A stretch of 64,000 nt of DNA from Eledone cirrhosa (taxonomy: Eukaryota), in assembly GCA_964016885.1 (NCBI GenBank), contig OZ024741.1, forward strand, positions 240,002,001 through 240,066,000. Direction: 5' to 3'. The notes under the pieces are model-generated. The model had not been told where the DNA came from and ran no database searches. It was given only the letters and a program-made list of their open reading frames with translations. The translations under genes were made by a program, and so were the position numbers. Positions 3,175 to 52,564 of this stretch are shown in pieces. Each line of letters begins with the position of its first letter. Within the stretch, counting starts at the first letter, position 1.

Positions 3175-4509
3175 AATAATTGGTGTAGAATCATAATAGA
3201 AATTAATTTCTATATATTTCTTTTCCCATAAAATTGGAACAATGATAGGAACACAGGCATAACAAAGAATATCACATGAAATATATATATAAGCCAGCAA
3301 AGTAAAAATCTGAGTAGGGAAGTGAGTAGGCAGAAACATTTAAGTGTCAGACAAAATATATTGTTAGGATTTATTTCAAGTCATTACATTCTGAGTTCAA
3401 ATCACACCAAGGTCAACTTTGCCTTTCATTCTTCTGGGGTTGATGAAATAAAGTTCCAGTCAAATACAGTTATGTTCTCTAACTAACATGGTTAGTTAGA
3501 GAACATAACTGTCACATCAATGCTATATCTATCTGTAACACACTATATTAGGGGCCAACACAACACACTTCCTATCAGTCATTCACTCAAATACAGACTC
3601 CCTCTAAAAAGCTACACTCCATTAAAAAATGATAATGAAAAAGGAAAACAGGAAAGCAAAATCTGAAGACATGTTATGAACCTAAATTTGTATATGTAGC
3701 ATATTTATTCTCTAAATATAACCTATAATGAAAATAATATTTTGTATTATAATGGTAAATCTTATAATGACTTCTTAAAATCGAATGATGGAAATAATAA
3801 AGATCAACATCTTGATTGAAGTGTCTTGAATAAATATTCCCATAAATTTTAGTTACTTTTATTGTAATTGCAAATAAATAAAAATGTTCAATCATGGAGG
3901 CAAAAGATGCATAAAACACATAGCTAAAAAATATACAACATAATTCACCAATTTCAAATGAAGCTGTACTTTTATAATACATGGCATCACTTCCTAATCA
4001 TCATTTGTCCATCATAAACATTACTTCATCATTGCTAACAATTTACTCACTATAATTACATTTAAACACAGAATATTTCTTTATATTCTATATGAAAAAT
4101 TTGCCTTACAACAAAAACAAACACACTCAAGAACAGAGCCTTATTTAGACTGCTTATATATATATATATATTAACGTATCTTGCATATAGCATCGACTAT
4201 ACAGACACAATAGCACATCTCATAGCAAAAACAAACAAATATACAATACAACATTACCTTATATAGACTGTTCTCTGTTACTGTTCAAATATTATATACT
4301 CATAATTTTGTTTATATGAAATAAGTCACAATATTAAACATTTTAACCAACATCAGCCAAATAATTGTGATATAAAACAATATGGACAACATTATTGAAA
4401 AAATGCCTGAATTATTGTTCAATCTCTTTGTTCACATGTTAATATTAAATATGTTAGAACAATATCTTACAGATTTACTGAGATTATAAAAGATTGAATA
4501 AAAACTTAC

Positions 4510-4940
4510 CTTTTTAATAATTATATCCTTGGTTATTCAGTGAGAATAGAAAGATGTATTGTTGAAGAAAGCTCCATTGTAAGTGCTGCTGTAATGGTGT
4601 GTGACAATGGCTGTATGTTGATGGAGTAGTGTAGCACGTCAGGCAGATAGTCTGCTGCTAGGATAGGGTTGTGTGTGTTATTGAAATTGTATGTTCGTGG
4701 CAGTACATCCCTCTAATAATGTTGTGTATGTATTTATCCTTAATTATGATGTTTGTTTACTGTTATCAATAACTATTTAGATATATTTAAATAGCTACAA
4801 TATTCTAGAGTTAAACATAACATGTTTGGTTTAATAACATCAGTAATGTGAATATTTCTCTTTGTTAATGATTTCTGTCTATGTTTTATTGAGAATCTGA
4901 TTGGTTGAATGACCTAAACAGAAGACCAATAACAATGTTC
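4510..4940 (-). promoter_or_regulatory. Conserved promoter + non-coding leader exon module for gene G0 (CDS left of window)
   Basis: Block repeated once per gene unit; ATTGG 4900-4904 and CCAAT 4926-4930; ends in AG|GTAAGT donor (4510/4509). Confidence 0.65.
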
Positions 4941-5348
4941 TTTTTAATTTTTTTTTTTTTTTTTTTTACTAAATGGGAAGAGGCTTCTTATTTAAAGTAA
5001 GGGTTGGATTTGTGTATTTATGCCTTTCCTTCTGAACATTATTAATAATTGTAACTAGATATATTCTAAAGTGTATTTCATATAAATTATAAAGCTTTTT
5101 TGATGCAATTTTCTCAAATAAAACCATCAAGTGCGGATGATATTTCTGTATTTAAATTTAAACTAACTTAATAATATTAAGGCAGAAAATATTTATTTAT
5201 TGGTAAAAATTCATGTCTGTAGAAAGAATGATGATTTATAGAAACACCCTATCTTATGAACACATTTCAGATAATAAAGAAGGTATATATTGATATGTGT
5301 GTTGAGCATATTCAAATAGAGAATGTTGTTTATGTCACTTCAATATAA

Positions 5349-5425
5349 TTATACATGTTTCACAGGTGTTTCTTCACTGGAATCTTTTGATGTAGATGTA
5401 TCATTGTTTTTATATATATTTTGAT
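5349..5425 (-). CDS. Pcdh: G1 protocadherin last coding exon, (D)QNIYKNNDTSTSKDSSEETPVKHV*
   Basis: 77-nt block conserved without indels in all 7 units, preceded by TAG acceptor; phase matches the G|GTTAAT donor of the previous exon. Confidence 0.75.
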
Positions 5426-5643
5426 CTAGAATTTATATAGAAAATAATATTTTAGAATATTATGAATGAGAGACATGTATACATTTAATTCATGACAATA
5501 TGCAATGGAAAATATGTGTTCAATTATAAATAAATCTTATAATTCTATGAATTATTAACAATATAATATATGATAGAAAGAGCTTTTAAAACAAATTTCA
5601 ATACGAGATATGAAAGTCAAATGTAACAAATGTAGGTATTAAC

Positions 5644-5809
5644 CTGATATTCCTGGTATTTCTTCATAATGTTTCATATCACCTTCATTCAATACACGTC
5701 TACTACTTCTCTTAGATGACATTGTATCTGATGTATAGTTACAAACTATAGGAGGATTATCTTCCACAGCATCATCACTTGATGTCACCACAACAGGTTG
5801 ACAATATTT
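5644..5809 (-). CDS. Pcdh: G1 protocadherin cytoplasmic exon, KYCQPVVV...HYEEIPGIS
   Basis: Pyrimidine tract + CAG acceptor at 5811/5810, in phase 0 with large exon; near-identical in 7 units. Confidence 0.85.
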
Positions 5810-5928
5810 CTGTTGACAAATAAACCAAGAGAAATGTGAGGAGACATCAAACAATCCTAGTTACAATAAACATGTAGTATACAATTTAATATTGGACTAT
5901 ATTATTGAAGATAAAACATTGTTAAAAT

Positions 5929-6106
5929 AATTGTTTCTACATTAGGCACAAGGCCAGCAATTACCCAGTGTATTACTGGTACTTTATTTTATCGACCCCG
6001 TAAGGATGAAAGGCAAAGTTTACCTTGGCGGGATTTGAACACAGAATGGCAAGGGCCGTAACTCTATGCGTCAAAGCATGGCGTCCAGCCCTCTACCGAT
6101 ACTGCC
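5929..6106 (-). mobile_element. tRNA-derived SINE in the short G1 intron
   Basis: Same family as 2997-3174; absent from the paralogous introns of G2-G7. Confidence 0.85.
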
Positions 6107-6166
6107 AATCCACATATCTTTTACATTTAAAGTGAAGATAGAAAATATTTTAATCTTTTCACTTAC

Positions 6167-8542
6167 TGGGGTAGGTTTTGGTAAAGTTCTTGACTGAACT
6201 GAAGCTTCATATTTATTCTGTAGCTGACCTTCTGAATAACATTCACTCTTTGATCTCTCAGAATATATATTTCTTTTTATCATCTCTTCTGTATTCCTTG
6301 ACATAGCAACAGGATTGTTAGACTGATACAACAATTGTTTCATCTCTGTTCTACCTTGGTATGCTGTAGTCTTTGTTGTAGTAGCTGTGTTATCTCTGTG
6401 TTTAATACATTTCATTATACACAGTGTTATAGAAACAACAATAGCCACTGATACTATTACTGCTGATGATACAATGATAATAACCCATGTCATATGGACT
6501 CTACCTGAAGATTGTATAGGTACACTTTTCAACATTGGTGATGTCTCATTACTAACAGCCAATACCAAAGTCACACTAGTTGTTGATGACTGAACTGGAC
6601 TACCACTGTCTTTTACAACAAACTTTAGTTCATAACTTCCAGCATCATTTAGATAAACTTGTCTGGAGAATGATAAAGCACCACTGTGTGAGTTCATAGT
6701 AAACAACTGTTTATTATTTCCTTGTATGATTCCATATATGAGGAAAGCATTGTTTCCACTGTCACTATCAGATGCTCTCAAAACTGTGATGTCACTCTTA
6801 CTCTGGGGATGGTAGTGGACATTTAGGGTATAAGGGTTAACACTAGGAAAGGTGAAATATGGAACATTGTCATTTTGATCTAAAATCTCAACAACAACAT
6901 TGGCTGTGTCATTCAGAGATGGATTTCCATTATCTATGACAAAAACTTCAAATTTATACACATCTTGTTTCTCTCTGTCTAATGACATGGTGGCTGAAAT
7001 AAAGCCATAACTGGTGATCAGAAATGGTAGATTTGATTTTTCTTTATGTAGCAGAGAATATGTGAGTTGTCCAGCAGATCCAAGGTCAGGGTCAGTGGCA
7101 TTGACAAAACCAATAGGGAAGTCTTTATCTTTGTTTTCATAGGTCAGGAATTGGAATGTATCTTTGGTAAACTGTGGTTGTACATCATTAATATCAGTCA
7201 CTTGGATAGAGAGAGTTTTAACACTTTTAAGAGGTGGTAATCCTTTATCTTGACAGGAGACAGGAATGTTATAGTGTCCTTGTGTTTCTCTGTCTACTGG
7301 TTTATTTAGAACTATTTTATATTCTTTAGATCCCATTGACTGTAGTTTGAATGTATTATGTTTGATATCACAGCTGATCTCTCCATTTTGTCCAACATCA
7401 TTGTCAGTGACCATCACATAAGCAATGAAACTACCAACTTTGATCTTCTCAGAAATTGTTCCTGAGTTATAATTAAGAGCAGAAACATAATCTATATCAA
7501 TAGATGGCGGGTTGTTGTGTTGGTTGACAATATTTACCAGAACTGTTCCTATGGAACTGAAGGGAGGGTTACCCCCATCTCTGGCTTCTATAAATAGTTC
7601 ATAGGTTTTCCTTTTTCCTAAACTTGAATATTTACTTAAGAAAATGTTTCCACTGGTTTCATTTAATTGGAAATATCTTTTTGTTAGGTCTGATGTCTTT
7701 GGACTGAAATGGAAACTAATTTTACCATTTTCACCAGAATCAGAATCTGTTACAGATAAAACAATGATAGGTTTAGATTTGTGATGTGTACTTTGTATGG
7801 ATATATTGTATAGAGGTTTAGAAAACACTGGTGGGTTGTCATTCACATCTATTATAGAGATATTTATATTTAAAATACCTTGTTTTGATGGTGAACCTCC
7901 ATCTTTAGCTATGACTTGTAGTAAATATGTATCTTTGATTTCTCTGTCTAATGAATCTTTTAAAATTATGTTAAGAGAAGAAATACCATCTGCTCTTTTA
8001 GAGACTGACAAAGAGAATGGACTTCTATTTTTTGTTTTTAGTTCATATTGTATTAATGAATTTTGAAAACCTACATCTTTGTCTATAGCATTTGGTAGCG
8101 ATCTTTTGGCACCTTTGCTAATATCTTCACCAAATTGTATGTTGACATTCTTTATAGGAAACTCTGGCTGATGGTCATTGATGTCTTCTATTACTATTTT
8201 GACTTTTATAATTTTTGTAAAAGTTTCCACTTTCTTTATAATAATTTTAACAGTTCTAGAACATTCTTTGTTGAAAGAACAGAGTTTCTCTGCATCCAGT
8301 GTCTGAGCAGTGTACAGTTTACCTGTTTCGGTGATATTAAATAACTGTGCCACCTTTCGTTTAAATTGACTAAATGTTATCAATTGTTGGTCAGATGGTT
8401 TAACATTGTCTAAAAGTTTAGAATCAGCAGCAATGTCTGCTACATATGTTCCTGGACTTCTCTCTTCTTCCACATGGTAGGTAAGGTCTATGGTCAGAAC
8501 ACAGTGGACCATTGATAATACAATAGACAATGACAGTAACAT
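6167..8542 (-). CDS. Pcdh: G1 protocadherin large exon: signal peptide, EC1-EC6, TM, juxtamembrane (792 codons)
   Basis: DxNDxxP, LDRE, AxDxGxP cadherin motifs, C-x5-C in EC1, TM WVIIIVSSAVIVSVAIVVSITLCIM; CCA|GTAAGT donor at 6167/6166; acceptor tttcag ends at 8599. Confidence 0.95.
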
Positions 8543-10169
8543 ATTGTTGGTGTTGCTTGGTACTGGTTAAAGATGGCCAGATATCTTGAGTATTGAACCT
8601 GAAACAAATATATCATTTCCTGAATTATAATTGTTGTACATTACCCATAGATTAATATAACATTTGGTATATCATTTTGTTTATAATTTTATTTGAGAAG
8701 GAAGTGCAGTGTATATAGCCTTCCCACTCATATGAGTCAGTGGTAGAGGTTATCAGATTAAGGTTAATATAGCTAGTATTCAGTGACTGATGATTAAGCA
8801 AATTTGGAATTGAATCCTAGTCATCTCTAGACAAATGCAATGATTTAAACATTAACTGATCTATGTAAAATGTTTTCCTGGGAGTAAGATATATTAGATT
8901 AATTAGAAATGAGAGAGAAGTTAATAAAATATACGTGTTTTGCTAGAGTTGGTGTAATGTCAAAATATTCAGAAGAGTAGAAATCATCTTCACGCTAACT
9001 TAATACACATAATAGGTATGAGTGAGGCTGGCTATGTTTGCTTTTATGATACAGTAACAGAATATATATGTTTAGATGGTGGAGAGAAGAGTGTCCTCCT
9101 CCTCCTCCTTCCCTTCATTTAACGTCTCTTTTCCCTGTTAGCAAGGGTTGGAGAAGTTGTCACAGACTGATTAGTACTTAAGCAGAGCAACAGGCCTCTT
9201 ACATTTTAGTGATTGTTCTGATGGGCTGGGATATTTTTAACTGTATAACAGTGGGACAAAATTGTGTCTAGTTTAGAGAAGTAAATATTGCAGATTGACA
9301 CATATTTCCAGAAAGTGCAATTTAATATTTAAAATGTAACCTTGTGTTACAGAAGGTGACAGTTTTTGGTCAGATGCTGTTCTCAATTAATGTGAGTTAA
9401 TGTTGTGTGAGCTAACACATATGTTGTGATCCAAAATATTACATGTAGCTAGCTTGACCATAAGGCTCTTAAACTTGACATGCTTCATGTCAAAGTTGAG
9501 AACATTCTTTTCACTTAAAGTTTCAAAGTAAAAGTAAGAACATCTTTGTAGTACATAAGAGCATAAGTTTTCAGTAAATTTGGCTTTGAAAATTCATAAT
9601 GGTTGATGTTATGTAATCCTGATTAACTCTGATCAAACAGGCCTATGCCGTGTATGTAGTTAGTTTAATATCTAGGAGTAATCTACATATCATGTACTGT
9701 AGATATTCTCTGCATCTACCTAAGTATCAAATTTAACACTCCCATAATTAGTTTTATTACATGGTGTACAAAGGAGGCAAATTGGCAGAATTGTTAGAAT
9801 GTTGGATAGAATGCTTTGGTCAATATATAAACTACCAGTCCAGTACTGGAGTTACTTCTTTCTCTATATCTCCTCTTCTCTGGAAGAAATCAGTTGAGTC
9901 GAGACCCAATGAGTGATAGGCTCCACCAGGTTTAATATGCCTACTACGACACTCCTGACACCACCAGGAGTTACATAAATATATGGCGCACAATATGAAT
10001 GTCTCTGCAGGTACAAATTTATCCATTTTATCTTGTTCATCTCTGCTTGAAAATTCAGATATTGACTGTATAAGTAGTCTGCAAGGCAGAATCAGTTGGA
10101 TGCACTAGTTATTTTCTTTTTGCTTTCATAAGTTAGTCAGAACAGAACTCATGAACTTTGCAGCTACTC

Positions 10170-13486: not shown

Positions 13487-13563
13487 TTATACATGTTTCA
13501 CTGGTGTTTCTTCACTGGAATCTTTTGATGTAGATGTATCATTGTTTTTATATATATTTTGAT
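13487..13563 (-). CDS. Pcdh: G2 last coding exon
   Basis: Same 77-nt exon, TAG acceptor, synonymous CCT/CCA change vs G1. Confidence 0.75.
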
Positions 13564-13781: not shown

Positions 13782-13947
13782 CTGATATCCCTGGTATTTC
13801 TTCATAATGTTTCATATCACCTTCATTCAATACACGTCTACTACTTCTCTTAGATGACATTGTATCTGATGTATAGTTACAAACTATAGGAGGATTATCT
13901 TCCACAGCATCATCACTTGATGTCACCACAACAGGTTGACAATATTT
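13782..13947 (-). CDS. Pcdh: G2 cytoplasmic exon
   Basis: CAG acceptor, 166 nt, paralog of 5644-5809. Confidence 0.85.
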
Positions 13948-14127: not shown

Positions 14128-16503
14128 TTGGGTAGGTTTTGGTAAAGTTCTTGACTGAACTGAAGCTTCATATTTATTCTGTAGCTGACCTTCTGAATAA
14201 CATTCACTCTTTGATCTCTCAGAATATATATTTCTTTTTATCATCTCTTCTGTATTCCTTGACATAGCAACAGGATTGTTAGACTGATACAACAATTGTT
14301 TCATCTCTGTTCTACCTTGGTATGCTGTAGTCTTTGTTGTAGTAGCTGTGTTATCTCTGTGTTTAATACATTTCATTATACACAGTGTTATAGAAACAAC
14401 AATAGCCACTGATACTATTACTGCTGATGACACAATGATAATAACCCATGTCATATGGACTCTACCTGAAGATTGTATAGGTACACTTTTCAACATTGGT
14501 GATGTCTCATTACTAACAGCCAATACCAAAGTCACACTAGTTGTTGATGACTGAACTGGACTACCACTGTCTTTTACAACAAACTTTAGTTCATAACTTC
14601 CAGCATCATTTAGATAAACTTGTCTGGAGAATGATAAAGCACCACTGTGTGAGTTCATAGTAAACAACTGTTTATTATTTCCTTGTATGATTCCATATGT
14701 GAGGAAAGCATTGTTTCCACTGTCACCATCAGATGCTCTCAAAACTGTGATGTCACTTTTACTCTGGGGATGGTAGTGGACATTTAGGGTGTAAGGGTCA
14801 ACACTAGGAAAGGTGAAATATGGAACATTGTCATTTTGATCTAAAATCTCAACAACAACATTAGCTGTGTCATTTAGAGATGGACTTCCATTATCTTTGA
14901 CAAAAACTTCAAATTTATACACATCTTGTTTCTCTCTGTCTAATGACATGGTGGCTGAAATAAAGCCATAACTGGTGATCAGAAATGGTAGATTTGATTT
15001 TTCTTTATGTATCAGAGAATATGTGAGTTGTCCAGCAGATCCAAGGTCAGGGTCAGTGGCATTGACAAAACCAATAGGGAAGTCTTTATCTTTGTTTTCA
15101 TAGGTCAGGAATTGGAATGTATCTTTGGTAAACTGTGGTTGTACATCATTAATATCAGTCACTTGGATAGAGAGAGTTTTAACACTTTTAAGAGGTGGTA
15201 ATCCTTTATCTTGACAGGAGACAGGAATGTTATAGTGTCCTTGTGTTTCTCTGTCTACTGGTTTATTTAGAACTATTTTATATTCTTTAGATCCCATTGA
15301 CTGTAGTTTGAATGTATCATGTTTGATATCACAGCTGACCTCTCCATTTTGTCCAACATCATTGTCAGTGACCATCACATAAGCAATGAAACTACCAACT
15401 TTGATCTTCTCAGAAATGGTTCCTGAGTTATAATTGAGAGAAGAAACATAATCTATATCAATAGATGGAGGGTTGTTGTGTTGATTGATAACATTTACCA
15501 GAACTGTTGCTATGGAACTGAAGGGAGGGTTACCCCCATCTCTGGCCTCAATAAATAGTTCATAGGTTTTCTTTTTCCCCAAAGTTGAATATTTACTTAA
15601 GAAAATGTTTCCACTGGTTTCATTTAACTGAAAATAACTTTTTGTTAGATCTGATGTTTTGGGGCTAAAATGGAAAGTAATTTTACCATTTTCACCAGAA
15701 TCAGAATCTTTTACAGATAAAACAATGATAGGTTTAGATTTGTGATGTGTACTTTGTATGGATATATTATATAGAGGTTTAGAAAACTCTGGTGGGTTAT
15801 CATTCACATCTATTATAGAAATATTTATATTTAAAATACCTTGTTTAGATGGTGAACCTCCATCTTTAGCTATGACCTGTAGTAAATATGTATCTTTGAT
15901 TTCTCGATCTAATGAATCTTTCAAAACTATGTTAAGAGAAGAAATACCATCTGCTCTTTTTGTTACTGACAAAGAGAATGGTTCTCCATTCTTGGATTTT
16001 AATTTATATTGTATTAATGAGTTCTGAAAACCTACATCTTTGTCTATGGCATTTGGTAGTGACTGTTTTGTGCCCTTTCCATCTGTTTCTGAGAATTTTA
16101 GAGAAATTTGTTTCTCAGAGAACTCTGGCTGATGGTCATTGATGTCTTCTATTACTATTTTGACTTTTATGATTTTTGTGAAAGTTTCCACTTTCTTTAT
16201 AATAATTTTTACAGTTCTAGAACATTCCTTGTTGAAAGAACAGAGTTTCTCTGCATCCAGTGTCTGAGCAGTGTACAGTTTACCTGTTTTCGTGATATTA
16301 AATAACTGTGCCACTTTTCGTTTAAACTGACTGAATGTTATCAATTGTTGGTCTGATGGTTTAACATTGTCTAAAAGTTTAGAATCAGCAGCAATGTCTG
16401 CTACATATGTTCCTGGACTTCTCTCTTCTTCCACATGGTAGGTAAGGTCTATGGTCAGAACACAGTGGACCATTGATAATACAATAGACAATGACAGTAA
16501 CAT
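14128..16503 (-). CDS. Pcdh: G2 protocadherin large exon (792 codons)
   Basis: Intact ORF, 6 EC + TM; CAA|GTAAGT donor. Confidence 0.95.
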
Positions 16504-19837: not shown

Positions 19838-19914
19838 TTATACATGTTTCACTGGTGTTTCTTCACTGGAATTTTTTGATGTAGATGTATCATTGTTTTT
19901 ATATATATTTTGAT
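19838..19914 (-). CDS. Pcdh: G3 last coding exon
   Basis: Same 77-nt exon, tttcag acceptor. Confidence 0.75.
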
Positions 19915-20233: not shown

Positions 20234-20399
20234 CTGATATTCCTGGTAATTCTTCATAATGTTTCATATCACCTTCATTCAATACACGTCTACTACTTCT
20301 CTTAGATGACATTGTATCTGATGTATAGTTACAAACTATAGGAGGATTATCTTCCACAGCATCATCACTTGATGTCACCACAACAGGTTGACAATATTT
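20234..20399 (-). CDS. Pcdh: G3 cytoplasmic exon (YEEL variant)
   Basis: CAG acceptor, 166 nt. Confidence 0.85.
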
Positions 20400-20582: not shown

Positions 20583-22958
20583 TGGGGTAGGTTTTGGTAA
20601 AGTTCTTGACTGAACTGAAGCTTCATATTTATTCTGTAGCTGACCTTCTGAATAACATTCACTCTTTGATCTCTCAGAATATATATTTCTTTTTATCAAC
20701 TCTTCTGTATTCCTTGACATAGCAACAGGATTGTTAGATTGATACAACAATTGTTTCATCTCTGTTCTACCTTGGTATGCTGTAGTCTTTGTTGTAGTAG
20801 CTGTGTTATCTCTGTGTTTAATACATTTCATTATACACAGTGTTATAGAAACAACAATAGCCACTGATACTATTACTGCTGATGATACAATGATAATAAC
20901 CCATGTCATATGGACTCTACCTGAAGATTGTATAGGTACACTTTTCAACATTGGTGATGTCTCATTACTAACAGCCAATACCAAAGTCACACTAGTTGTT
21001 GATGACTGAACTGGACTACCACTGTCTTTTACAACAAACTTTAGTTCATAACTTCCAGCATCATTTAGATAAACTTGTCTGGAGAAGGATAAAGCACCAC
21101 TGTGTGAGTTCATAGTAAACAATTGTTTATTATTTCCTTGTATGATTCCATATATGAGGAAAGCATTGTTTCCACTGTCACCATCAGATGCTCTCAAAAC
21201 TGTGATGTCACTCTTACTCTGGGGATGGTAGTGGACATTTAGGGTGTAAGGGTCAACACTAGGAAAGGTGAAATATGGAACATTGTCATTTTGATCTAAA
21301 ATCTCAACAACAACATTGGCTGTGTCATTCAGAGATGGACTTCCATTATCTTTGACAAAAACTTCAAATTTATACACATCTTGTTTCTCTCTGTCTAATG
21401 ACATGGTGGCTGAAATAAAGCCATAACCTGTGATCAGAAATGGTAGATTTGATTTTTCTTTATGTAGCAGAGAATATGTGAGTTGTCCAGCAGATCCAAG
21501 GTCAGGGTCAGTGGCATTGACAAAACCAATAGGGAAGTCTTTATCTTTGTTTTCATAGGTCAGGAATTGGAATGTATCTTTGGTAAACTGTGGTTGTACA
21601 TCATTGATATCAGTCACTTGGATAGAGAGAGTTTTAACACTTTTAAGAGGTGGTAATCCTTTATCTTGACATGAGACAGGAATGTTATAGTGTCCTTGTG
21701 TTTCTCTGTCTACTGGTTTGTTTAGAACTATTTTATATTCTTTAGATCCCATTGACTGTAGTTTGAATGTATCATGTTTGATATCACAGCTGATCTCTCC
21801 ATTTTGTCCAACATCATTGTCAGTGACCATCACATAAGCAATGAAACTACCAACTTTGATATCTTCAGAAATGGTAGCTGTGTTGTCATTGATAGCAGAA
21901 ACATAATCTATATCAATAGATGGAGGGTTGTTGTGTTGATTGACAATATTTATCAAAACTGTTGCTATGGAACTAAATGGAGGGTTGCCTCCATCTCTGG
22001 CCTCTATAAATAATTCATAGGTTTTCTTTTTTCCTAAACTTGAATATTTACTTAAGTAAATGTTTCCACTAGTTTCATTTAATTCGAAGTAATGTTTTGC
22101 TAGATCTGATGTCTTTGGACTGAAATGGAAAGTAATTTTACCATTTTCACCAAAATCAGAATCTGTTACAGATAAAATAATGATAGGTTTAGATTTGTGA
22201 TGTGTACTTTGTATGGATATATTATATAGAGGTTTTGAAAACTCTGGTGGGTTGTCATTCACATCTATTATAGAGATATTTATATTTAAAATACCTTGTT
22301 TTGATGGTGAACCTCCATCTTTAGCTATGACCTGTAGTAAATATGTATCTTTGATTTCTCTATCTAATGATTCTTTTATAACTATGTTAAGAGAAGAAAT
22401 ACCATCAGCTCTTTTAGAAACAGACAGAGAGAATGGTTCACCATTCTTTGATTTTAATTTATATTGTATTAATGAGTTTTGAAAACCTATATCTTTGTCT
22501 ATGGCATTTGGTAGTGATTGTTTTGTGCCCTTTCCATCTGTTTCTGAGAACCTTAAAAAAATTTGTTTCTTTGGAAATTCAGGCAGATGGTCATTGATAT
22601 CTTCTATTACTATTTTGATTTTTAATATTTTAGTAACACTTCTTCCTTTATTAATAACAACCTTAACTGTTCTAGAACATTCTTTGTTAAATGTACAGAG
22701 CTTCTCTGCATCCAGTGTCTGAGCAGTGTACAGTTTACCTGTTTTGGTGATATTAAATAACTGTGCCACCTTTCGTTTAAATTGACTGAATGTTATCAAT
22801 TGTTGGTCAGATGGTTTAACATTGTCTAAAAGTTTAGAATCAGCAGCAATGTCTGCTACATATGTTCCTGGACTTCTCTCTTCTTCCACATGGTAGGTAA
22901 GGTCTATGGTCAGAACACAGTGTACCATTGATAATACAATGGACAATGACAGTAGCAT
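20583..22958 (-). CDS. Pcdh: G3 protocadherin large exon (792 codons; true ATG at 22958)
   Basis: Intact ORF, 6 EC + TM; ORF-track extension to 23030 crosses the tttcag acceptor at 23022. Confidence 0.95.
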
Positions 22959-28109: not shown

Positions 28110-28186
28110 TTATACATGTTTCACAGGTGTTTCTTCACTGGAATCTTTTGATGTAGATGTATCATTGTTTTTATATATATTTTGAT
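28110..28186 (-). CDS. Pcdh: G4 last coding exon
   Basis: Same 77-nt exon, TAG acceptor. Confidence 0.75.
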
Positions 28187-28404: not shown

Positions 28405-28570
28405 CTGATATTCCTGGTATTTCTTCATAATGTTTCATATCACCTTCATTCAATACACGTCTACTACTTCTCTTAGATGACATTGTATCTGATGTATAGT
28501 TACAAACTATAGGAGGATTATCTTCCACAGCATCATCACTTGATGTCACCACCACAGGTTGACAATATTT
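28405..28570 (-). CDS. Pcdh: G4 cytoplasmic exon
   Basis: CAG acceptor, 166 nt. Confidence 0.85.
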
Positions 28571-28753: not shown

Positions 28754-31123
28754 TGGGGTAGGTTTTGGTAAAGTTCTTGACTGAACTGAAGCTTCATATT
28801 TATTCTGTAGCTGACCTTCTGAATAACATTCACTCTTTGATCTCTCAGAATATATATTTCTTTTTATCATCTCTTCTGTATTCCTTGACATAGCAACAGG
28901 ATTATTAGACTGATACAACAATTGTTTCATCTCTGTTCTACCTTGGTATGCTGTAGTCTTTGTTGTAGTAGCTGTGTTATCTCTGTGTTTAATACATTTC
29001 ATTATACACAGTGTTATAGAAACAACAATAGCCACTGATACTATTACTGCTGATGATACAATGATAATAACCCATGTCATATGGACTCTACCTGAAGATT
29101 GTATAGGTACACTTTTCAACATTGGTAATGTCTCATTACTAACAGCCAATACCAAAGTCACACTAGTTGTTGATGACTGAACTGGACTACCACTGTCTTT
29201 TACAACAAATTTTAGTTCATAACTTCCAGCATCATTTAGATAAACTTGTCTGGAGAATGATAAAGCACCACTGTGTGAGTTCATAGTAAACAACTGTTTA
29301 TTATTTCCTTGTATGATTCCATATGTGAGGAAAGCATTGTTTCCACTGTCACCATCAGATGCTCTCAAAACTGTGATGTCACTCTTACTCTGGGGATGGT
29401 AGTGGACATTTAGGGTGTAAGGGTTAACACTAGGAAAGGTGAAATATGGAACATTGTCATTTTGATCTAAAATCTCAACAACAACATTGGCTGTGTCATT
29501 CAGAGATGGATTTCCATTATCTTTGACAAAAACTTCAAATTTATACACATCTTGTTTCTCTCTGTCTAATGACATGGTGGCTGAAATAAAGCCATAACTG
29601 GTGATCAGAAATGGTAGATTTGATTTTTCTTTATGTAGCAGAGAATATGTGAGTTGTCCAGCAGATCCAAGGTCAGGGTCAGTGGCATTGACAAAACCAA
29701 TAGGGAAGTCTTTATCTTTGTTTTCATAGGTCAGGAATTGGAATGTATCTTTGGTAAATTGTGGTTGTACATCATTGATATCAGTCACTTGGATAGAGAG
29801 AGTTTTAACATTTTTAAGAGGTGGTAATCCTTTATCTTGACAGGAGACAGGAATGTTATAGTGTCCTTGTGTTTCTCTGTCTACTGGTTTATTTAGAACT
29901 ATTTTATATTCTTTAGATCCCATTGACTGTAGTTTGAATGTATCATGTTTGATATCACAGCTGACCTCTCCATTTTGTCCAACATCATTGTCAGTGACCA
30001 TCACATAAGCAATGAAACTACCAACTTTGATCTTCTCAGAAATGGTAGCTGTGTGGTCATTGATAGCAGAAACATAATCTATATCAATAGATGGAGGGTT
30101 GTTGTGTTGGTTGATAACATTTATCAAAACTGTTGCTATGGAACTAAAGGGAGGTCTACCTCCATCTCTAGCTTCTATAAATAATTCAAAAGATGTTTTT
30201 TCGTTTAAACTAGAAATTCTGGACAAAAATATTTTGCCATCTTTTCTATTTAATTCAAAATATTTCCTAGCTTGATCAGAAGTTTTGGGACTGAAATGGA
30301 AAGTAATTTTACTGTTGGGTCCTAAATCTTTATCTGTTACTGACAAATTAAGAATAGGTTTGGTTTTGTCATGAGTGGTTCTAATGGAAATATTATAAAG
30401 TGGTTTTGAAAATACAGGTGGATTATCATTCTCATCTTCTACAATAATCAGAACATTTAATACACACTGTTTAGATGGGGAGCCTCCATCTTTAGCAATA
30501 ACTTCTAAATTGAATTTCTCTTTTATCTCTCTGTCTAATTTATCTTTTAAAAGAATATTTAATGAGGAAATACCATCAGCTCTTTTAGAAACTGACAGCG
30601 AAAATGAATCAATAGATTTTTTAAGTTTATACTCAATAAAAGAATTTTGGTAACTAATGTCATTGTCTATAGCATTTGGGATTGACTTCTTCATACCTTC
30701 CCGATCTCCTTCTCTAAATTGTAAAGTGATTTGTTTTTCTGGAAACTCTGGTTCATGGTCGTTAATGTCTTCTATTACTATTTTGACTTTTATGATTTTA
30801 GTAAAGGTTTCCACTTTCTTCATTATAATTTTAACAGTTCTAGAACATTCTTTGTTGAATGTACAGAGATTTTCTGCATCCAGTGTCTGAGCAGTGTACA
30901 GTTTACCTGTTTTGGTGACATTAAATAACTGTGCCACCTTTCGTTTAAATTGACTGAATATTATCAATTGTTGGTCAGATGGTTTAACATTGTCTAAAAG
31001 TTTAGAATCAGCAGCAATGTCTGCTACATATGTTCCTGGACTTCTCTCTTCTTCCACATGGTAGGTAAGGTCTATGGTCAGAACACAGTGGACCATTGAT
31101 AATACAATAGACGACAGTAACAT
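28754..31123 (-). CDS. Pcdh: G4 protocadherin large exon (790 codons; divergent EC2-EC3)
   Basis: Intact ORF, 6 EC + TM; GTAAGT donor at 28753. Confidence 0.95.
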
Positions 31124-36108: not shown

Positions 36109-36185
36109 TTATACATGTTTCACTGGTGTTTCTTCACTGGAATCTTTTGCTGTAGATGTATCGTTGTTTTTATATATATTTTGAT
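36109..36185 (-). CDS. Pcdh: G5 last coding exon
   Basis: Same 77-nt exon, tttcag acceptor. Confidence 0.75.
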
Positions 36186-38932: not shown

Positions 38933-39098
38933 CTGATATTCCTGGTAATTCTTCATAATGTTTCATATCACCTTCATTCAATACACGTCTACTACTTCTT
39001 TTAGATGACATTGTATCTGATGTATAGTTACAAACCATAGGAGGATTATCTTCAACAGCATCATCACTTGATGTCACCACAACAGGTTGACAATATTT
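38933..39098 (-). CDS. Pcdh: G5 cytoplasmic exon (YEEL variant)
   Basis: CAG acceptor, 166 nt. Confidence 0.85.
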
Positions 39099-39281: not shown

Positions 39282-41657
39282 TGGGGTAGGTTTTGGTAAA
39301 GTTCTTGACTGAACTGAAGCTTCATATTTATTCTGTAGCTGACCTTCTGAATAACATTCACTCTTTGATCTCTCAGAATATATATTTCTTTTTATCATCT
39401 CTTCTGTATTCCTTGACATAGCAACAGGATTGTTAGACTGATACAACAATTGTTTCATCTCTGTTCTACCTTGGTATGCTGTAGTCTTTGTTGTAGTAGC
39501 TGTGTTATCTCTGTGTTTAATACATTTCATTATACACAGTGTTATAGAAACAACAATAGCCACTGATACTATTACTGCTGATGATACAATGATAATAACC
39601 CATGTCATATGGACTCTACCTGAAGATTGTAAAGGTACACTTTTCAACATTGGTGATGTCTCATTACTAACAGCCAATACCAAAGTCACACTAGTTGTTG
39701 ATGACTGAACTGGACTACCACTGTCTTTTACAACAAACTTTAGTTCATAACTTCCAGCATCATTTAGATAAACTTGTCTGGAGAAGGATAAAGCACCACT
39801 GTGTGAGTTCATAGTAAACAACTGTTTATTATTTCCTTGTATGATTCCATATGTGAGGAAAGCATTGTTTCCACTGTCACCATCAGATGCTCTCAAAACT
39901 GTGATGTCACTCTTACTCTGGGGATGGTAGTGGACATTTAGGGTGTAAGGGTTAACACTAGGAAAGGTGAAATAGGGAACATTGTCATTTTGATCTAAAA
40001 TCTCAACAACAACATTGGCTGTGTCATTCAGAGATGGATTTCCATTATCTTTGACAAAAACTTCAAATTTATACACATCTTGTTTCTCTCTGTCTAATGA
40101 CATGGTGGCTGAAATAAAGCCATAACTGGTGATCAGAAATGGTAGATTTGATTTTTCTTTATGTATCAGAGAATATGTGAGTTGTCCAGCAGATCCAAGG
40201 TCAGGGTCAGTGGCATTGACAAAACCAATAGGGAAGTCTTTATCTTTGTTTTCATAGGTTAGAAATTGGAATGTATCTTTGGTAAACTGTGGTTGTACAT
40301 CATTAATATCAGTCACTTGGATAGAGAGAGTTTTAACACTTTTAAGAGGAGGTAATCCTTTATCTTGACATGAGACAGGAATGTTATAGTGTCCTTGTGT
40401 TTCTCTGTCTACTGGTTTGTTTAGAACTATTTTATATTCTTTAGATCCCATTGACTGTAGTTTGAATGTATCATGTTTGATATCACAGCTGATCTCTCCA
40501 TTTTGTCCAACATCATTGTCAGAGACCATCACATAAGCAATGAAACTACCAACTTTAATATCTTCAGAAATGGTAGCTGTGTGGTCATTGATAGCAGAAA
40601 CATAATCTATATCAATAGATGGAGGGTTGTTGTGTTGGTTGATAACATTTACTAGAACTGTTGCTATAGAACTGTGAGGTGGACTGCCTCCATCCCTGGC
40701 CTCAATAAACAGCTCATAGGTTTTCTTTTTTCCTAAACTTGAATATTTACTTAAGAAAATATTTCCAGTAGTTTTGTTTAACTGGAAGTAATCTTTTGCC
40801 AGATATGATGTCTTTGGGCTGAAATGGAAAGTAATTTTACCATTTTCACCAGAATCAGAATCTGTTACAGATAAAACAATGATAGGTTTAGATTTGTGAT
40901 GTGTACTTTGTATCGATATATTATATAGAGGTTTAGAAAATACTGGTGGGTTGTCATTCACATCTATTATAGAGATATTTATATTTAAAATACCTTGTTT
41001 TGATGGTGAACCTCCATCTTTAGCTATGACCTGTAGTAAATATGTATCTTTGATTTCTCTGTCTAATGATTCTTTTAAAACTATTTTAAGAGAAGAAATA
41101 CCATCTGCTCTTTTTGTTACTGACAGAGAGAATGGTTCGCCATTCTTGGATTTTAATTTATATTGTATTAATGAGTTCTGAAAACCTACATCTTTGTCTA
41201 TAGCATTTGGTATTGTTTGTTTTGCACCTTTAGCAATATTCTCAGATAACTGTATATCAATTTTCTTCATAAGAAACTGTGGCTCATGGTCATTGATGTC
41301 TTGTATAATTATTTTGATTTTTATTATCTTTGTAACACTTGTTCCTTTATTCACAACAACCTTCACAGTTCTAGAACATTCTTTGTTAAATGTACAGAGT
41401 TTCTCTGCATCCAGTGTCTGAGCAGTGTACAGTTTACCTGATTTGGTGATATTAAATAATTGTGCCACCTTTCGTTTAAATTGACTGAATGTTATCAATT
41501 GTTGGTCAGATGGTTTAACATTGTCTAAAAGTTTAGAATCAGCAGCAATGTCTGCTACATATGTTCCTGGACTTCTCTCTTCTTCCACATGGTAGGTAAG
41601 GTCTATGGTCAGAACACAGTGGACCATTGATAATACAATAGACAATGACAATAACAT
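39282..41657 (-). CDS. Pcdh: G5 protocadherin large exon (792 codons; true ATG at 41657)
   Basis: Intact ORF, 6 EC + TM; acceptor tttcag ends at 41707. Confidence 0.95.
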
Positions 41658-42462
41658 ATTGTTGTTGGTACTGGTTAAAGATGGCCAGATATCTTGAGGA
41701 TTGAACCTGAAACAAAAACATTTTATCAATTACTATCATTTTATTTCAATATAGTTTAAAATACATAAAAGTATATCATCTCTGATATATATGAGTAAAA
41801 CTTTCTAGATGAAAATATCTGGAAACAATTATCTTGAAGAAAAACCTAAAGATAGACTATCCTTACTTTTTAGAATGTTTAGTATAAAAAAAAAAGACAA
41901 GACAATTTATTGCACATAATGTATAAAGTGAGTTTAAACCCGAGATATTAGCTGAGTTTCTGTTAAAAAGAAAAGCTAATTTTCAAAATAATAAGGAATC
42001 TTTTGATCAGATTTCGCTCACATTGTTGTGGTGTTTTGTAAATTCAAAATAAATCTTCTCTTTGAAAGGAATATGACATAACATGCAGCTTTCTATATAA
42101 CTAAACTGGCTAGAAGTCAATGGGATATTTGTAAAGTGTTGCTAGCTGCAGCTAAGTGGACTATAACACACACACATTAGTACCTACTTAGAGCTAGACA
42201 TACTGTATCACACTGGGGTATCTATTTACAGCAATGAGTACTGTACCCAACCATGGTATTGTGGTCCTTACATAGAGCTACATGAACTCTAGCTCACCAT
42301 GTAGGTGTTCTTTACCCATTGTTGTATCTACTTTTAGTAAGGTGAAGTTTACCTCGCCATGACACCTCATCCATATGGGCTATTGCCCACCTGTCACCTA
42401 CAGATTAAATTGATTGCATGCCATTGTAGTACCTAACAACTTGGCAGATTGTAATTCAATAT

Positions 42463-43166
42463 CATCATCATCATCATCATATCTTGTCGCGACAGTGCCA
42501 TATCCATTGAAGTGCAGTGTCGTTTGCTTCCATCAGGTCTTGGTCGGAGCATGTGGGTCCCAGTGAGCACCCATGGAGGAGGTGGGCTATGGTCTGGGAG
42601 GTCTTGCTGCAGGGGCACTCAGCGCAGGTGGCCAATCCCCACTTGTGGAGGTTGTCTCCAGTTTTGCCCATTTTGGCTCTGGCCCTGTTTAGGGTTACCC
42701 AGTCCTTTCTGCTAAGAGATGTTCCATTGGGAAGGCTTTCATTTGTGCTTGGTAAGGCCGCGTCGGGTGGGCGGCGGTCACTCTCCCTCCACCTTTCCAA
42801 CCTGTAAGCCGCCGATTGTGCATGCTCCAGGCTTTCCACGGTAAAGAAGCTTTTTAGAGATTTTAATCGTCTTCTTATTTCCTGGTGGCCATAGAGTGGA
42901 TGCCTGGGATTGTGTTGTTGTTTGTACCGTTTAGTTTTTGCATTGACCTCTCGTCGTATGTGGGGTGGTGGAATGCCGGCAAGAGTGTATATGGCTGGAA
43001 GGGGAGTTGCTTATAATGTTCCGGTGATCATCTGGCATGATTTGTTCAACCTGTGGTGCCCCTGTTAATCCGAAAGGAGACCGAATATTACAACACGCGC
43101 AACGCTGTACCCAACACCTAGGGGTGGTAAAAGGATAAACCCTCAGCCCCTAGTCACGAAGATGCA
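42463..43166 (-). mobile_element. Non-autonomous Ingi/Vingi-like non-LTR element
   Basis: C-terminal LAGIPPPHIRR...WVTLNRAR...KWG..CxC..QTIAH..C motifs, (GAT)n tail, 10-bp TSD AATTCAATAT at 42453 and 43167. Confidence 0.75.
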
Positions 43167-47966: not shown

Positions 47967-48043
47967 TTATACATGTTTCACTGGTGTTTCTTCACTGGAA
48001 TCTTTTGATGTAGATGTATCGTTGTTTTTATACATATTTTGAT
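47967..48043 (-). CDS. Pcdh: G6 last coding exon
   Basis: Same 77-nt exon, ttccag acceptor. Confidence 0.75.
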
Positions 48044-48223
48044 CTGGAATTTTGGAACAGAATATAGTTTAACAAAATTATCAAAATGATCATTTATTGA
48101 ACAAAATTAAGATATCACAAAAAAAAAAAAAAAGGGTTCATATATACTTTGATCTGAAATTTAGATACAAAATATATTTTTATAGAATATTGGATATGAC
48201 TTTTTGTTCTTTAATTAGACAAA

Positions 48224-49693: not shown

Positions 49694-49841
49694 ACTAAAG
49701 AGTATGTTTCGACTGCAGGGCTTCTAAGAATCTAACGGGCACATGAGAAAATCAACAACTATTTAATGTCAGAATTTTCAGAAATAAATAAATATATTTC
49801 ATATGGTATCAAAGTAAAATATTGCCAAAGTAGTTATTAAC

Positions 49842-50007
49842 CTGATATTCCTGGTATTTCTTCATAATGTTTCATATCACCTTCATTCAATACACGTCTA
49901 CAACTTCTCTTAGATGACATTGTATCTGATGTATAGTTACAAACTATAGGAGGATTATCTTCCACAGCATCATCACTTGATGTCACCACAACAGGTTGAC
50001 AATATTT
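49842..50007 (-). CDS. Pcdh: G6 cytoplasmic exon
   Basis: CAG acceptor, 166 nt. Confidence 0.85.
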
Positions 50008-50188
50008 CTGTTGACAAACAAACCAAGAAAAATGTGAGGAGACATCAAACAATGCTAGTTACAATAAACATGTAGTTTACAATTTAATATTGGACTATAT
50101 TATTGAAGATAAAACATTGTTAAAATAATCTTATTGTTTATCTTTTACATATAGAGTGAAGAAAAAATATGTTAATATTTTCACTTAC

Positions 50189-52564
50189 TGGGGTAGGTTT
50201 TGGTAAAGTCCTTGACTGAACTGAAGCTTCATATTTATTCTGTAGCTGACCTTCTGAATAACATTCACTCTTTGATCTCTCAGAATATATATTTCTTTTT
50301 ATCATCTCTTCTGTATTCCTTGACATAGCAACAGGATTGTTAGACTGATACAACAATTGTTTCATCTCTGTTCTACCTTGGTATGCTGTAGTCTTTGTTG
50401 TAGTAGCTGTGTTATCTCTGTGTTTAATACATTTCATTATACACAGTGTTATAGAAACAACAATAGCCACTGATACTATTACTGCTGATGATACAATGAT
50501 AATAACCCATGTCATATGGACTCTACCGGAAGATTGTAAAGGTACACTTTTCAACATTGGTGATGTCTCATTACTAACAGCCAATACCAAAGTCACACGA
50601 GTTGTTGATGACTGAACTGGACTACCACTGTCTTTTACAACAAACTTTAGTTCATAACTTCCAGCATCATTTAGATAAACTTGTCTGGAGAATGATAAAG
50701 CACCACTGTGTGAGTTCATAGTAAACAACTGTTTATTATTTCCTTGTATAATTCCATATGTGAGGAAAGCATTGTTTCCACTGTCACCATCAGATGCTCT
50801 CAAAACTGTGATGTCACTCTTACTCTGGGGATGGTAGTGGACATTTAGGGTGTAAGGGTTAACACTAGGAAAGGTGAAATATGGAACATTGTCATTTTGA
50901 TCTAAAATCTCAACAACAACATTGGCTGTGTCATTTAGAGATGGACTTCCATTATCTTTGGCAAAAACTTCAAATTTATACACATCTTGTTTCTCTCTGT
51001 CTAATGACATGGTGGCTGAAATAAAGCCATAACTGGTGATCAGAAATGGTAGATTTGATTTTTCTTTATGTATCAGAGAATATGTGAGTTGTCCAGCAGA
51101 TCCAAGGTCAGGGTCAGTGGCATTGACAAAACCAATAGGGAAGTCTTTATCTTTGTTTTCATAGGTCAGGAATTGGAATGTATCTTTGGTAAATTGTGGT
51201 TGTACATCATTGATATCAGTCACTTGGATAGAGAGAGTTTTAACACTTTTAAGCGGTGGTAATCCTTTATCTTGACATGAGACAGGAATGTTATAATGTC
51301 CTTGTGTTTCTCTGTCTACTGGTTTGTTTAGAACTATTTTATATTCTTTAGATCCCATTGACTGTAGTTTGAATGTATCATGTTTGATATCACAGCTGAC
51401 CTCTCCATTTTGTCCAACATCATTGTCAGTGACCATCACATAAGCAATGAAACTACCAACTTTGATATCTTCAGAGATGGTAGCTGTGTGGTCATTGATA
51501 GCAGAAACATAATCTATATCAATAGATGGAGGGTTGTTGTGTTGGTTGATAACATTTACCAGAACTGTTGCTATAGAACTTTGTGGAGGGCTCCCTCCAT
51601 CTCTGGCCTCTATAAATAATTCATAGGTTTTCTTTTTTCCCAAACTTGAATATTTATTTAAGAAAATGTTTCCACTGGTTTCATTTAATTGGAAATAACT
51701 TTTTGCTAGATCTGATGTCTTTGGACTGAAATGGAAAGTAATTTTACCATTTTCACCAGAATCAGAATCTGTTACAGATAAAACAATGATAGGTTTAGAT
51801 TTGTGATGTGTACTTTGTATGGATATATTATATAGAGGTTTAGAAAATACTGGTGGGTTGTCATTTAAATCTGTTATAGAGATATTTATATTTAAAATAC
51901 CTTCTTTTGATGGTGAACCTCCATCTTTAGCTATGACCTGTAGTAAATATGCATCTTTGATTTCTCTGTCTAATGATTCTTTCAATACTATTTTAAGAGA
52001 AGAAATACCATCAGCTCTTTTAGAAACTGACAGAGAGAATGGTTCGCCATTCTTGGATTTCAATTTATATTGTATTAACGAGTTTTGAAAACCTACATCT
52101 TTGTCTATGGCATTTGGTAGTGTTACCTTAGACCCTTTGCGATCATTTTCACCAAACTGTATATCGGCTTTTTCCTTTGGAAATTCAGGTAGATGGTCAT
52201 TGATGTCTTCTATTACTATTTTAATTTTCAATATTTTTGTAACACTTGTTCCTTTATTCACAACAACCTTCACAGTTCTAGAACATTCTTTGTTAAATGT
52301 ACAGAGCTTCTCTGCATCCAGTGTCTGAGCAGTGTATAGTTTACCTGTTTTGGTGATATTAAATAACTGTGCCACCTTTCGTTTAAATTGACTGAATGTT
52401 ATCAATTGTTGGTCAGATGGTTTAACATTGTCTAAAAGTTTAGAATCAGCAGCAATGTCTGCTACATATGTTCCTGGACTTCTCTCTTCTTCCACATGGT
52501 AGGTAAGGTCTATGGTCAGAACACAGTGGACCATTGATAATACAACAGCCAATGGCAGTAACAT
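50189..52564 (-). CDS. Pcdh: G6 protocadherin large exon (792 codons)
   Basis: Intact ORF, 6 EC + TM; GTAAGT donor at 50188. Confidence 0.95.

Follow-up and report, generated by a model that had tools for sequence, protein, structure and literature searches.

Clustered protocadherins are the main candidate barcode for self/non-self recognition among vertebrate neurons, and cephalopods enlarged their protocadherin family independently, alongside large brains. To our knowledge, nobody has shown functional differences among the cephalopod copies. The window analysed here, a 64,000-nucleotide (nt) stretch of the Eledone cirrhosa genome (contig OZ024741.1, positions 240,002,001 to 240,066,000), carries six protocadherin genes, G1-G6, which form part of a longer tandem array of at least 32 intact genes. 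Our data suggest that these are old tandem copies, that both ends of each gene were probably overwritten by gene conversion, and that the differences lying between a hairpin in the first extracellular cadherin repeat (EC1) and a loop in the fourth (EC4) were probably kept for binding specificity; we regard this as the likely explanation of the array.

Regional gene conversion has been described for the fugu Pcdh2 alpha and gamma subclusters where, according to Yu et al. (2007; PMC1852091), the 3' part of the large exon is more than 99% identical, silent sites included, up to a discrete boundary in EC4 or EC5, and the 5' ectodomains are 60-80% identical. In the same account the homogenisation is lineage-specific, EC1-EC3 are proposed as the diversifying signal, and the GC content of third codon positions (GC3) exceeds 50%. 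The octopod array shares with fugu the near-identical 3' part, the EC4/EC5 boundary, the divergent 5' ectodomains and the lineage-specific homogenisation. It differs in having a second homogenised block (signal peptide and N-terminal part of EC1), in a homogenisation that extends across an intron into exon 2, in the absence of a GC3 rise, and in being composed of complete genes, whereas the fugu units are variable exons.

In the clustered protocadherins of mouse, Xenopus and zebrafish, synonymous divergence (dS) is highest in EC2/EC3 and lowest in EC5/EC6, a profile read by Etlioglu et al. (2016; PMC4978886) as conversion that spares the specificity domains. The octopod array is likewise high in EC2/EC3 and low in EC5/EC6, but its profile is resolved to islands smaller than a domain, and the contrast is steeper: the ratio is 2-5-fold in the Xenopus rows of that paper's table, compared with 14-fold overall here and more than 100-fold between the hypervariable block and the tail. 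The first-pass annotation had drawn a parallel with the vertebrate clustered locus, and this is supported by the dS profile and the cross-species trees (regional homogenisation sparing EC2/EC3); both loci also consist of tandem large exons in one orientation (here 32 intact, on the minus strand). The vertebrate alpha and gamma clusters differ in sharing one set of constant exons; no such set was found in the array, where each gene has its own exons 2 and 3. Coleoid sub-arrays have been described as tandem, co-oriented, closely related multi-exon genes without shared constant exons, and conversion was suggested from whole-gene trees (Styfhals et al., 2019, PMC6339937; Albertin et al., 2022, PMC9068888). 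Domain-resolved dS, a trans-species contrast, recombination tests and covariation are absent from the portions of these two papers available to us, and a full-text literature search turned up neither a domain-resolved study of cephalopod protocadherins nor one of their covariation. The cephalopod expansion is considered, in PMC9068888 and PMC4978886, to be independent of the vertebrate one.

A search of the animal's own genome, in which 40 of 251 candidates were scored, returned at least 33 minus-strand copies at 94-100% identity, spread over ~320 kb, and the 354 kb that were fetched hold 32 intact open reading frames (ORFs) in a single orientation, 6.5-18 kb apart. The members are named p01-p32, G1-G6 being p08-p13, and most analyses used a core set of 30 genes (p03-p32) aligned without gaps except for two single-codon indels; p01 was omitted from the trees because of its indels, and a partial 33rd copy at the right end of the array, whose exon 2 was seen by tblastn, was excluded. 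Each of the six minus-strand ORFs in the window, 808-823 amino acids (aa) long, contains a Pfam Cadherin_2 domain and five Cadherin stretches (for the family, Cadherin_2 at aa 20-103, E = 5e-11, and Cadherin in five stretches, E = 3e-70). The AlphaFold2 model (mean pLDDT, the predicted local distance difference test, 74.8) has six β-domains up to aa 663 followed by a helix, and the closest solved structures are delta-2 and gamma protocadherins, including Pcdh10 and gamma-B4 (E = 1e-86 for 6vg1 to 1e-57). By domain profile and predicted fold the family is identified as protocadherin, with six EC repeats, a single putative transmembrane (TM) helix and a cytoplasmic tail. The nearest proteins come from O. 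vulgaris (88%), Argonauta hians (81-85%) and O. sinensis (79%), and the array, made of alike, co-oriented, three-exon genes with octopod nearest relatives, is best classed as a coleoid cephalopod protocadherin sub-array.

The paralogs differ mainly from the end of EC1 to the start of EC4. Among G1-G6, 307 of the 861 sites in nt 280-1140 are variable compared with 69 of 1515 elsewhere (chi-square p = 3e-88), and the interval first flagged as a mosaic, window positions 7430-8290, is this variable zone (nt 253-1113 in G1, whose ATG is at 8542 on the minus strand). The block strings quoted by the first-pass annotation are all present in the translated ORFs with the partners it gave them: EC1 ends with KIIIKKVETFTK in G1 and G2, KIIMKKVETFTK in G4, KVVINKGRSVTK in G3 and KVVVNKGTSVTK in G5 and G6; at the start of EC2, FSETDGKGTKQSLP is limited to G2 and G3 among the six genes; and EC4 starts with LNYNSGT in G1 and G2, INDNTAT in G3 and INDHTAT in G4-G6. 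Its restriction of the variation to three blocks does not hold across the 30 core genes, where variation is continuous from about aa 95 to aa 366 and comprises one hypervariable block and two dimorphic islands. The EC1 island occurs in two types, 'KIIxKKVETF' and 'KVVVNKGxSV'. The hypervariable block, aa 125-150, has 30 distinct haplotypes in 30 genes and holds the entropy maximum of the gene, and block trees of the core genes show a deep split of the EC2-EC3 body into class A, with 22 genes, and class B, with 8, with a fine mosaic in addition. The EC4 island ('LNYNSGT..K' versus 'INDxTAT..D/K') is small and lies amid homogenised sequence, its proportion of synonymous differences (pS) being 0.13-0.23 against 0.06 and 0.00 on the flanking sides. 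The constant part is 98.7% identical across copies, all of them intact.

This contrast extends to silent sites. Nei-Gojobori estimates over the core genes gave a dS of 0.106 in nt 1-279, 0.507 in nt 280-1140 and 0.036 in nt 1141-2376, so that the middle has 14-fold the dS of the 3' part, and the near-identity outside the zone even at silent sites, already remarked in the first pass, is borne out by pS (0.099 and 0.036 versus 0.368). The ratio of nonsynonymous to synonymous divergence (dN/dS) is 0.16, 0.22 and 0.21 in the same three regions, and this equality (~0.2) indicates a greater age of the middle and no faster protein evolution there. In the hypervariable block dS reaches 1.17 with a dN/dS of 0.28, and silent sites are near saturation. 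The 5' flanks upstream of -100 are alignable with only ~0.5 of the 29 other paralogs on average (nucleotide diversity, pi, 0.53-0.64), and pi is 0.04-0.11 in intron 1 and exon 2 and 0.4-0.55 directly 3' of exon 2. The copy p02 carries 0.49 substitutions per site in the 5' block, yet its 3' block is practically identical to the array. The unique 5' flanks, the homogenised intron 1 and exon 2 and the p02 contrast together indicate that the similarity of the frame is not explained by young genes.

Trees were built from 31 genes of this genome, 10 proteins of O. vulgaris, 9 of O. sinensis, 21 of Argonauta hians and 2 outgroups. For aa 390-792 they recover Octopus and Argonauta as separate clades, both with support 100 and almost without internal diversity, and species labels require 7 changes. 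The tree for aa 95-345 divides (99/99) between class B (9+7+3+2 sequences) and class A (22+14+7+7), all lineages being present in each, and species labels require 19 changes. Hypervariable motifs such as FSETDGKGTKQSLP, FGEDARISSKRSLP, FDENDSKGSKVS and FGEHDRKGSDRSIP recur across lineages, in Octopus and Argonauta as well as in this genome. In the hypervariable block 7 of 31 genes have their nearest relative in another species (6 ties), a number that drops to 1 in the EC2-EC3 body and to 0 in the constant part, which carries species-wide substitutions. A constant part that sorts by species and a variable part that sorts by type bear the classical signature of homogenisation limited to part of a gene, and the claim that the sequence outside the EC1-end to EC4-start interval has been homogenised is thus upheld by the 14-fold dS contrast at equal dN/dS and by the species-wise grouping of the constant part. 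We infer that the homogenising process is gene conversion; unequal crossing-over would sit badly with spacers that are unique and tracts that are short. The variants themselves are old and shared with Octopus and Argonauta, and the proposal that conversion generated them has to be replaced by one in which conversion only shuffles them.

Within the variable zone the pairwise homoplasy index (PHI) test was strongly significant for the 30 genes (z = -10.3), for class A (z = -13.1) and for class B (z = -6.5), with 0 of 500 permutations as low in each case. Approximately unbiased (AU) tests on the blocks nt 280-480, 481-780 and 781-1140 showed that each rejects the maximum-likelihood trees of the other two (p 1.5e-4 to < 1e-100); such tests favour the tree of their own block by construction, but the log-likelihood gaps of 97-391 are nevertheless large. 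The discordant partners among blocks noted in the first pass are therefore real, and the per-domain trees it proposed as a check are incongruent across blocks. In class A the fraction of site pairs with all four gametes is 0.30 at up to 10 bp and 0.5-0.64 beyond, the minimum number of recombination events (Rm) is at least 59 in 861 nt, and mean r2 decays from 0.25 at up to 20 nt to 0.06 beyond 50 nt. From the PHI and AU tests, the four-gamete fractions and the r2 decay it follows that the zone is a fine-grained patchwork rather than a few cassettes; with linkage disequilibrium (LD) gone within ~50 nt, the shuffling of 'a few blocks' gives way to a fine mosaic.

A few sites depart from this rule. 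Of the 33 long-range pairs found in class A (> 300 nt, r2 >= 0.6), 31 join codons 99-114 to codons 358-366, the remaining two being 92-235 and 191-328, so that the EC1 and EC4 islands are in LD across ~770 nt of shuffled sequence. In a mutual-information test of 68 non-redundant sequences, stratified by species and class, the top pair was 191 (EC2)-328 (EC3) at z = 13.1, and EC1-EC4 pairs made up 27 of the top 30 (background 98/3977). An unstratified version across species, dominated by species-fixed differences (e.g. 388-457 and 53-443), was set aside in favour of the stratified test. A basic residue at 106 occurs with D366 in 16/16 sequences and in 2/2 outgroups, an acidic residue at 106 is accompanied at 366 by K in 22 sequences, N in 3 and D in 1 (n = 26), and M, V or I at 106 occurs with K366 in 6/6. 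G361 is restricted to the F108 background (15/15) and V or I at 108 to the A361 background (37/37), while N191 goes with F or I at 328 in 27/28 sequences and K or R at 191 with L, H or Q at 328 in 39/40. The charge pattern recurs in 99 distant octopod protocadherins (< 70% identity), where basic 106 is paired with acidic 366 in 50/50 and acidic 106 with non-acidic 366 in 29/30. Under a phylogenetic control based on independent pairs on starred branches, 8.8 of the 9 pairs for 191/328 ran the same way and none the opposite way (p = 0.004), and pooling two disjoint sets for basic 106 with acidic 366 gave ~8 same and 0 opposite (sign test near 0.01, our own arithmetic). The EC1 hairpin thus appears to stay coupled, and charge-matched, to the first EC4 loop, and EC2 residue 191 to EC3 residue 328, and therefore the blocks are not freely shuffled. 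The EC1 end and EC4 start, taken at first for independent combinatorial units, are the one block pair that stays coupled.

On the AlphaFold2 model the EC1 strands β6 and β7 span aa 95-104 and 107-119, so that aa 105-106 form the tip of the β6-β7 hairpin, and the EC2 strands β1 and β2 span aa 132-138 and 146-149, so that the hypervariable block covers β1, the loop and β2. In EC3 a helix at aa 285-289 lies within the loop F279..F291, and in EC4 strand β1a (aa 347-352) is followed by a loop (353-359) and a strand (360-364). According to Nicoludis et al. (2016; PMC5001838), the EC1 β6-β7 loop of vertebrate dimers touches the loop after EC4 β1a, and a helical Phe-X10-Phe loop of EC3 is a diversity element; EC2 residue 111 and EC3 residue 294 are given as a specificity pair of gamma-B by Goodman et al. 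(2016; PMC5106212). In pairwise HMMER alignments, which may be off by a few residues in loops, gamma-B 111 aligns with hypervariable Q136 and gamma-B 294 with N325, three residues N-terminal of aa 328. The array thus has in common with the antiparallel EC1-4 dimers of vertebrate clustered and delta protocadherins six EC repeats, coupled blocks that fall on the EC1 β6-β7 loop and the loop after EC4 β1a, an aa 328 close to the gamma-B 294 equivalent, and a helical F..F loop in EC3. It differs in that the octopod EC1 hairpin exceeds that of gamma isoforms by 3 residues and the EC4 loop by 6, the latter an insertion relative to Pcdh gamma-B4, and in that the most variable octopod element is EC2 β1-β2, whereas in vertebrate subfamilies this role falls to the β4-β5 loop of EC2 and to the EC3 loop. 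The vertebrate dimers have been solved; the octopod dimer is proposed here from sequences. The covariation pattern fits an antiparallel EC1-4 dimer (EC1:EC4, EC2:EC3), and it is from this pattern and from homology to the vertebrate interfaces that we infer a recognition code, as the first-pass annotation had done. A dimer prediction for EC1-4 (two copies of aa 18-455) scored 0.00; it had no controls and left our own alignment unused, and it weighs neither way.

Our preferred explanation is that non-reciprocal conversion across the whole array would homogenise both ends of the genes, and that the same process would move short tracts within the variable zone. Selection would then remove converted or mismatched variants, since the zone would be, as in vertebrates, the antiparallel EC1:EC4/EC2:EC3 homophilic interface. 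The EC2 block at aa 125-150 and the matched pairs 106:366 and 191:328 could act as specificity determinants, and the homogenised 3' part would play the role that shared constant exons play in vertebrates. Several results weigh against this explanation. None of the 30-nt windows and none of the blocks has a dN/dS above 1, and diversifying selection thus leaves no direct trace; the sliding dS and dN/dS check proposed in the first pass gave a strongly non-uniform dS. Under the phylogenetic control 191:328 alone reaches significance, the result for 106:366 being directional: basic 106 with D366 gave 4.6 same and 0 opposite in 5 pairs (p = 0.06), basic 106 with acidic 366 in the distant set 3.5 same and 0 opposite in 6 pairs (p = 0.25), and acidic 106 with K366 3.5 same and 0.1 opposite (p = 0.125), or 4.6 same and 0 opposite in the distant set (p = 0.06). 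Residues 136 and 325, the gamma-B 111:294 equivalents, are both hypervariable and show no evident covariation. Conversion is deduced from the pattern and no event was caught in progress. GC3 is not consistently raised in the homogenised parts (0.33, 0.29 and 0.22, versus 0.23), unlike in fugu, and PHI is non-significant in the constant part (232/500 permutations), which has only 52 informative sites. The comparison sequences are proteins, taken as top matches and listed cluster members (15 of 24 for the largest cluster), and in the aa 390-792 tree the copies of this genome form an unresolved basal grade and no supported clade.

The alternative that survives best, though we consider it unlikely, is that the mechanics of conversion suffice, with the diverged middle blocking long tracts through heteroduplex formation and mismatch repair and no selection for binding diversity. 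It accords with the sharp boundaries common to all copies, with the lack of any dN/dS above 1 and with an EC2-EC3 body that is still largely species-clustered within the classes. The short-tract exchange inside the zone, however, shows that the zone is not closed to conversion, and narrow islands (aa 99-114 and aa 355-366) persist beside fully homogenised sequence. Those islands are in LD over ~770 nt with a charge matching that recurs in distant subfamilies, and the 191:328 coupling holds under phylogenetic control, neither of which suits mechanics alone.

Repeated unequal crossing-over with breakpoints inside the genes, a turnover of chimeric units, appears quite improbable. A head-to-tail array lends itself to it, the neighbours p19 and p20 have a common intron read-through sequence, and intergenic blocks are 88-90% identical in ~30 copies; against this, the spacers and 5' flanks are mostly unique and the spacing varies from 6.5 to 11 kb, the homogenised segments are short, with two separate ones around an old core in a single exon, and LD decay within tens of bases fits short non-reciprocal tracts. 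A neighbour effect is also lacking: Mantel tests of distance along the array against sequence distance were non-significant in every region, a result that does not favour our explanation either. Recent tandem duplication followed by fast EC1-EC4 divergence, under positive selection or local hypermutation and without conversion, would account for the identity of the constant part, the intactness of all copies and the many variable residues in the middle, but we think it very improbable, as silent divergence is raised 14 times there too at an equal dN/dS of ~0.2, the 5' flanks are unalignable beyond -100, the classes and hypervariable motifs are common to Octopus and Argonauta while the constant part has species-wide substitutions, and p02 joins a divergent 5' block to an almost identical 3' block. 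An assembly artefact, by which constant parts were collapsed or polished together in a repetitive region, is conceivable for 98-99% identical repeats in a 3-Gb assembly, but its probability is negligible given the private differences retained (170 variable sites outside the variable zone, and 52 informative sites in the constant part), the same architecture in independent protein sets of three other octopods, and contigs of four public runs that match G1 at >= 97% identity.

The positions of the features are collected in Table 1. All six ORFs read through a splice donor, GTAAGT, after '...KPTP', and a private exon 2 and exon 3 lie a short way 3' of every array copy, as located by a tblastn search whose query was the tail of P0001, the best named homologue (O. 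vulgaris, 88% identical). For G1-G6 this gives clean GT-AG three-exon models with products of 870-872 aa (872 aa for G1). A contig of public run X22 joins 5425|5644 and 5809|6167 with GT..AG introns on the minus strand, so that the three-exon structure is seen in one spliced molecule; the contig fits the exons of G1, but exons 2 and 3 resemble each other so closely between paralogs that another copy, or another pairing of exons, would agree with it as well. This was the one spliced contig found (kind of run not stated), and no RNA run was listed over the variable zone. Intron 1 of G1 is 357 nt long, compared with 180-183 nt in G2-G6, because of a very high-copy repeat inserted at window positions 5902-6135, where the summed depth of contigs reaches 1.8 million in three runs from a single sample.

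Table 1. Positions of the protocadherin gene features in the 64,000-nt window (aa numbering of G1)
Feature	Window position	Strand	Description	Basis
G1 exon 1	6167..8542	-	792 codons; signal peptide, EC1-EC6, TM, start of cytoplasmic tail	ORF, Pfam, AlphaFold2, X22 contig
G1 5' homogenised block	8263..8542	-	nt 1-280; signal peptide and N-terminal part of EC1	dS 0.106
G1 EC1 dimorphic island	8198..8248	-	aa 99-115; end of β6, hairpin tip (V105, E106), start of β7	
G1 hypervariable block	8093..8170	-	aa 125-150; EC2 β1, β1-β2 loop, β2	
G1 EC2-EC3 body	7523..8092	-	aa 151-340; holds pair aa 191/aa 328 and F279..F291 loop	
G1 EC4 dimorphic island	7445..7480	-	aa 355-366; loop after strand β1a	
G1 3' homogenised block	6167..7444	-	nt 1099-2376; rest of EC4, EC5, EC6, TM, tail; runs on into intron 1 and exon 2	
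G1 TM helix			aa 684-715	AlphaFold2 model
G1 intron 1	5810-6166	-	357 nt, GT..AG; holds high-copy repeat insertion	
G1 exon 2	5644..5809	-	166 nt, KYCQPVVV...EEIPG	tblastn, X22 joints
G1 intron 2	5426-5643	-	218 nt, GT..AG	
G1 exon 3, coding part with stop	5349..5425	-	ends in DQNIYKNNDTSTSKDSSEETPVKHV and stop	tblastn, X22 contig, gene model
G2	exon 1 14128..16503; exon 2 13782-13947; exon 3 coding 13487-13563	-	variable zone 15364-16224	
G3	exon 1 20583..22958; exon 2 20234-20399; exon 3 coding 19838-19914	-	variable zone 21819-22679	
G4	exon 1 28754..31123; exon 2 28405-28570; exon 3 coding 28110-28186	-	variable zone ~29990-30847; class B EC2-3	
G5	exon 1 39282..41657; exon 2 38933-39098; exon 3 coding 36109-36185	-	variable zone 40518-41378	
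G6	exon 1 50189..52564; exon 2 49842-50007; exon 3 coding 47967-48043	-	variable zone 51425-52285	

Beyond these genes, a seventh paralog of class B (p14) enters the window with the 3' end of its exon 1 (63629-64000) and is clipped by the window edge. At the left edge of the array lie two outlier copies, p01 (L002:553-2928), which is more divergent along its whole length and has several indels, and p02 (L003:1934-4516), whose signal peptide and EC1 are very unlike those of the other copies, whose EC2-3 resembles class B and whose 3' part is fully homogenised; P0011 of O. vulgaris is of the p02 type. The next subfamily, 77% identical in the constant part and on the minus strand, is located at G000:C2:239.28-239.83 Mb. 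The last 100 nt 5' of the ATG (8543-8642 in G1) align among ~12 of 29 paralogs at ~84% identity, the sequence further upstream being unique, and could be a shared 5' untranslated region (UTR) or a core-promoter element beside private regulatory DNA. Beyond exon 3, an intergenic block of ~0.8 kb found ~3.5-4.3 kb 3' of each ATG (~4300-5050 for G1) occurs in ~30 copies at 88-90% identity, with a divergence intermediate between frame and core, and may represent either a 3' UTR or conserved regulatory sequence. Several long spacer ORFs between the protocadherin genes (e.g. L009:5816-7441 on the plus strand, the L004/L005 cluster at 48259-51051, and L020:6556-8100) have reverse-transcriptase-like motifs and presumably derive from transposon proteins, which would have helped to make the spacers unique. 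A 54-bp minisatellite of ~29 copies (90% matches) lies at 55144-56687, between G6 and the next paralog, and accounts for long ORFs on both strands at 55026-56717, which are almost certainly no genes. Two patches of the window (42001-44000 and 48001-50000) have a GC content of 0.40-0.43, compared with 0.26-0.35 for the rest.

Regional conversion is already known in teleost and mammalian protocadherins; what appears to be new here are the two homogenised segments, the absence of a GC3 signature, the ancient, trans-specific shuffled core, and the coupled sites that point to an EC1-4 interface. A more far-reaching version, which we advance tentatively and to which we give somewhat less than an even chance, is that octopods evolved an identity code of their own, with a fixed frame evolving in concert, an ancient EC2 cassette private to each gene, and lock-and-key pairs kept by selection against shuffling. 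If so, complete genes would imitate the design of 'variable exon plus constant exons' through array-wide concerted evolution, the frame being the signal peptide and the start of EC1, the sequence from EC4 through the tail, one intron and exon 2, and the pairs being charge-matched at 106/366 (EC1 hairpin/EC4) and size-matched at 191/328 (EC2/EC3). The array displays, at a resolution finer than the domain, what octopods hold constant and what they keep distinct, and the differences in the variable zone predate the split of Octopus and Argonauta. The coupled residues 106/366, 108/361 and 191/328 and the 26-residue cassette are concrete targets for swaps, through which the question of a homophilic code in cephalopod protocadherins becomes directly testable, and the array may provide a natural example of selection keeping interacting sites together against gene conversion.

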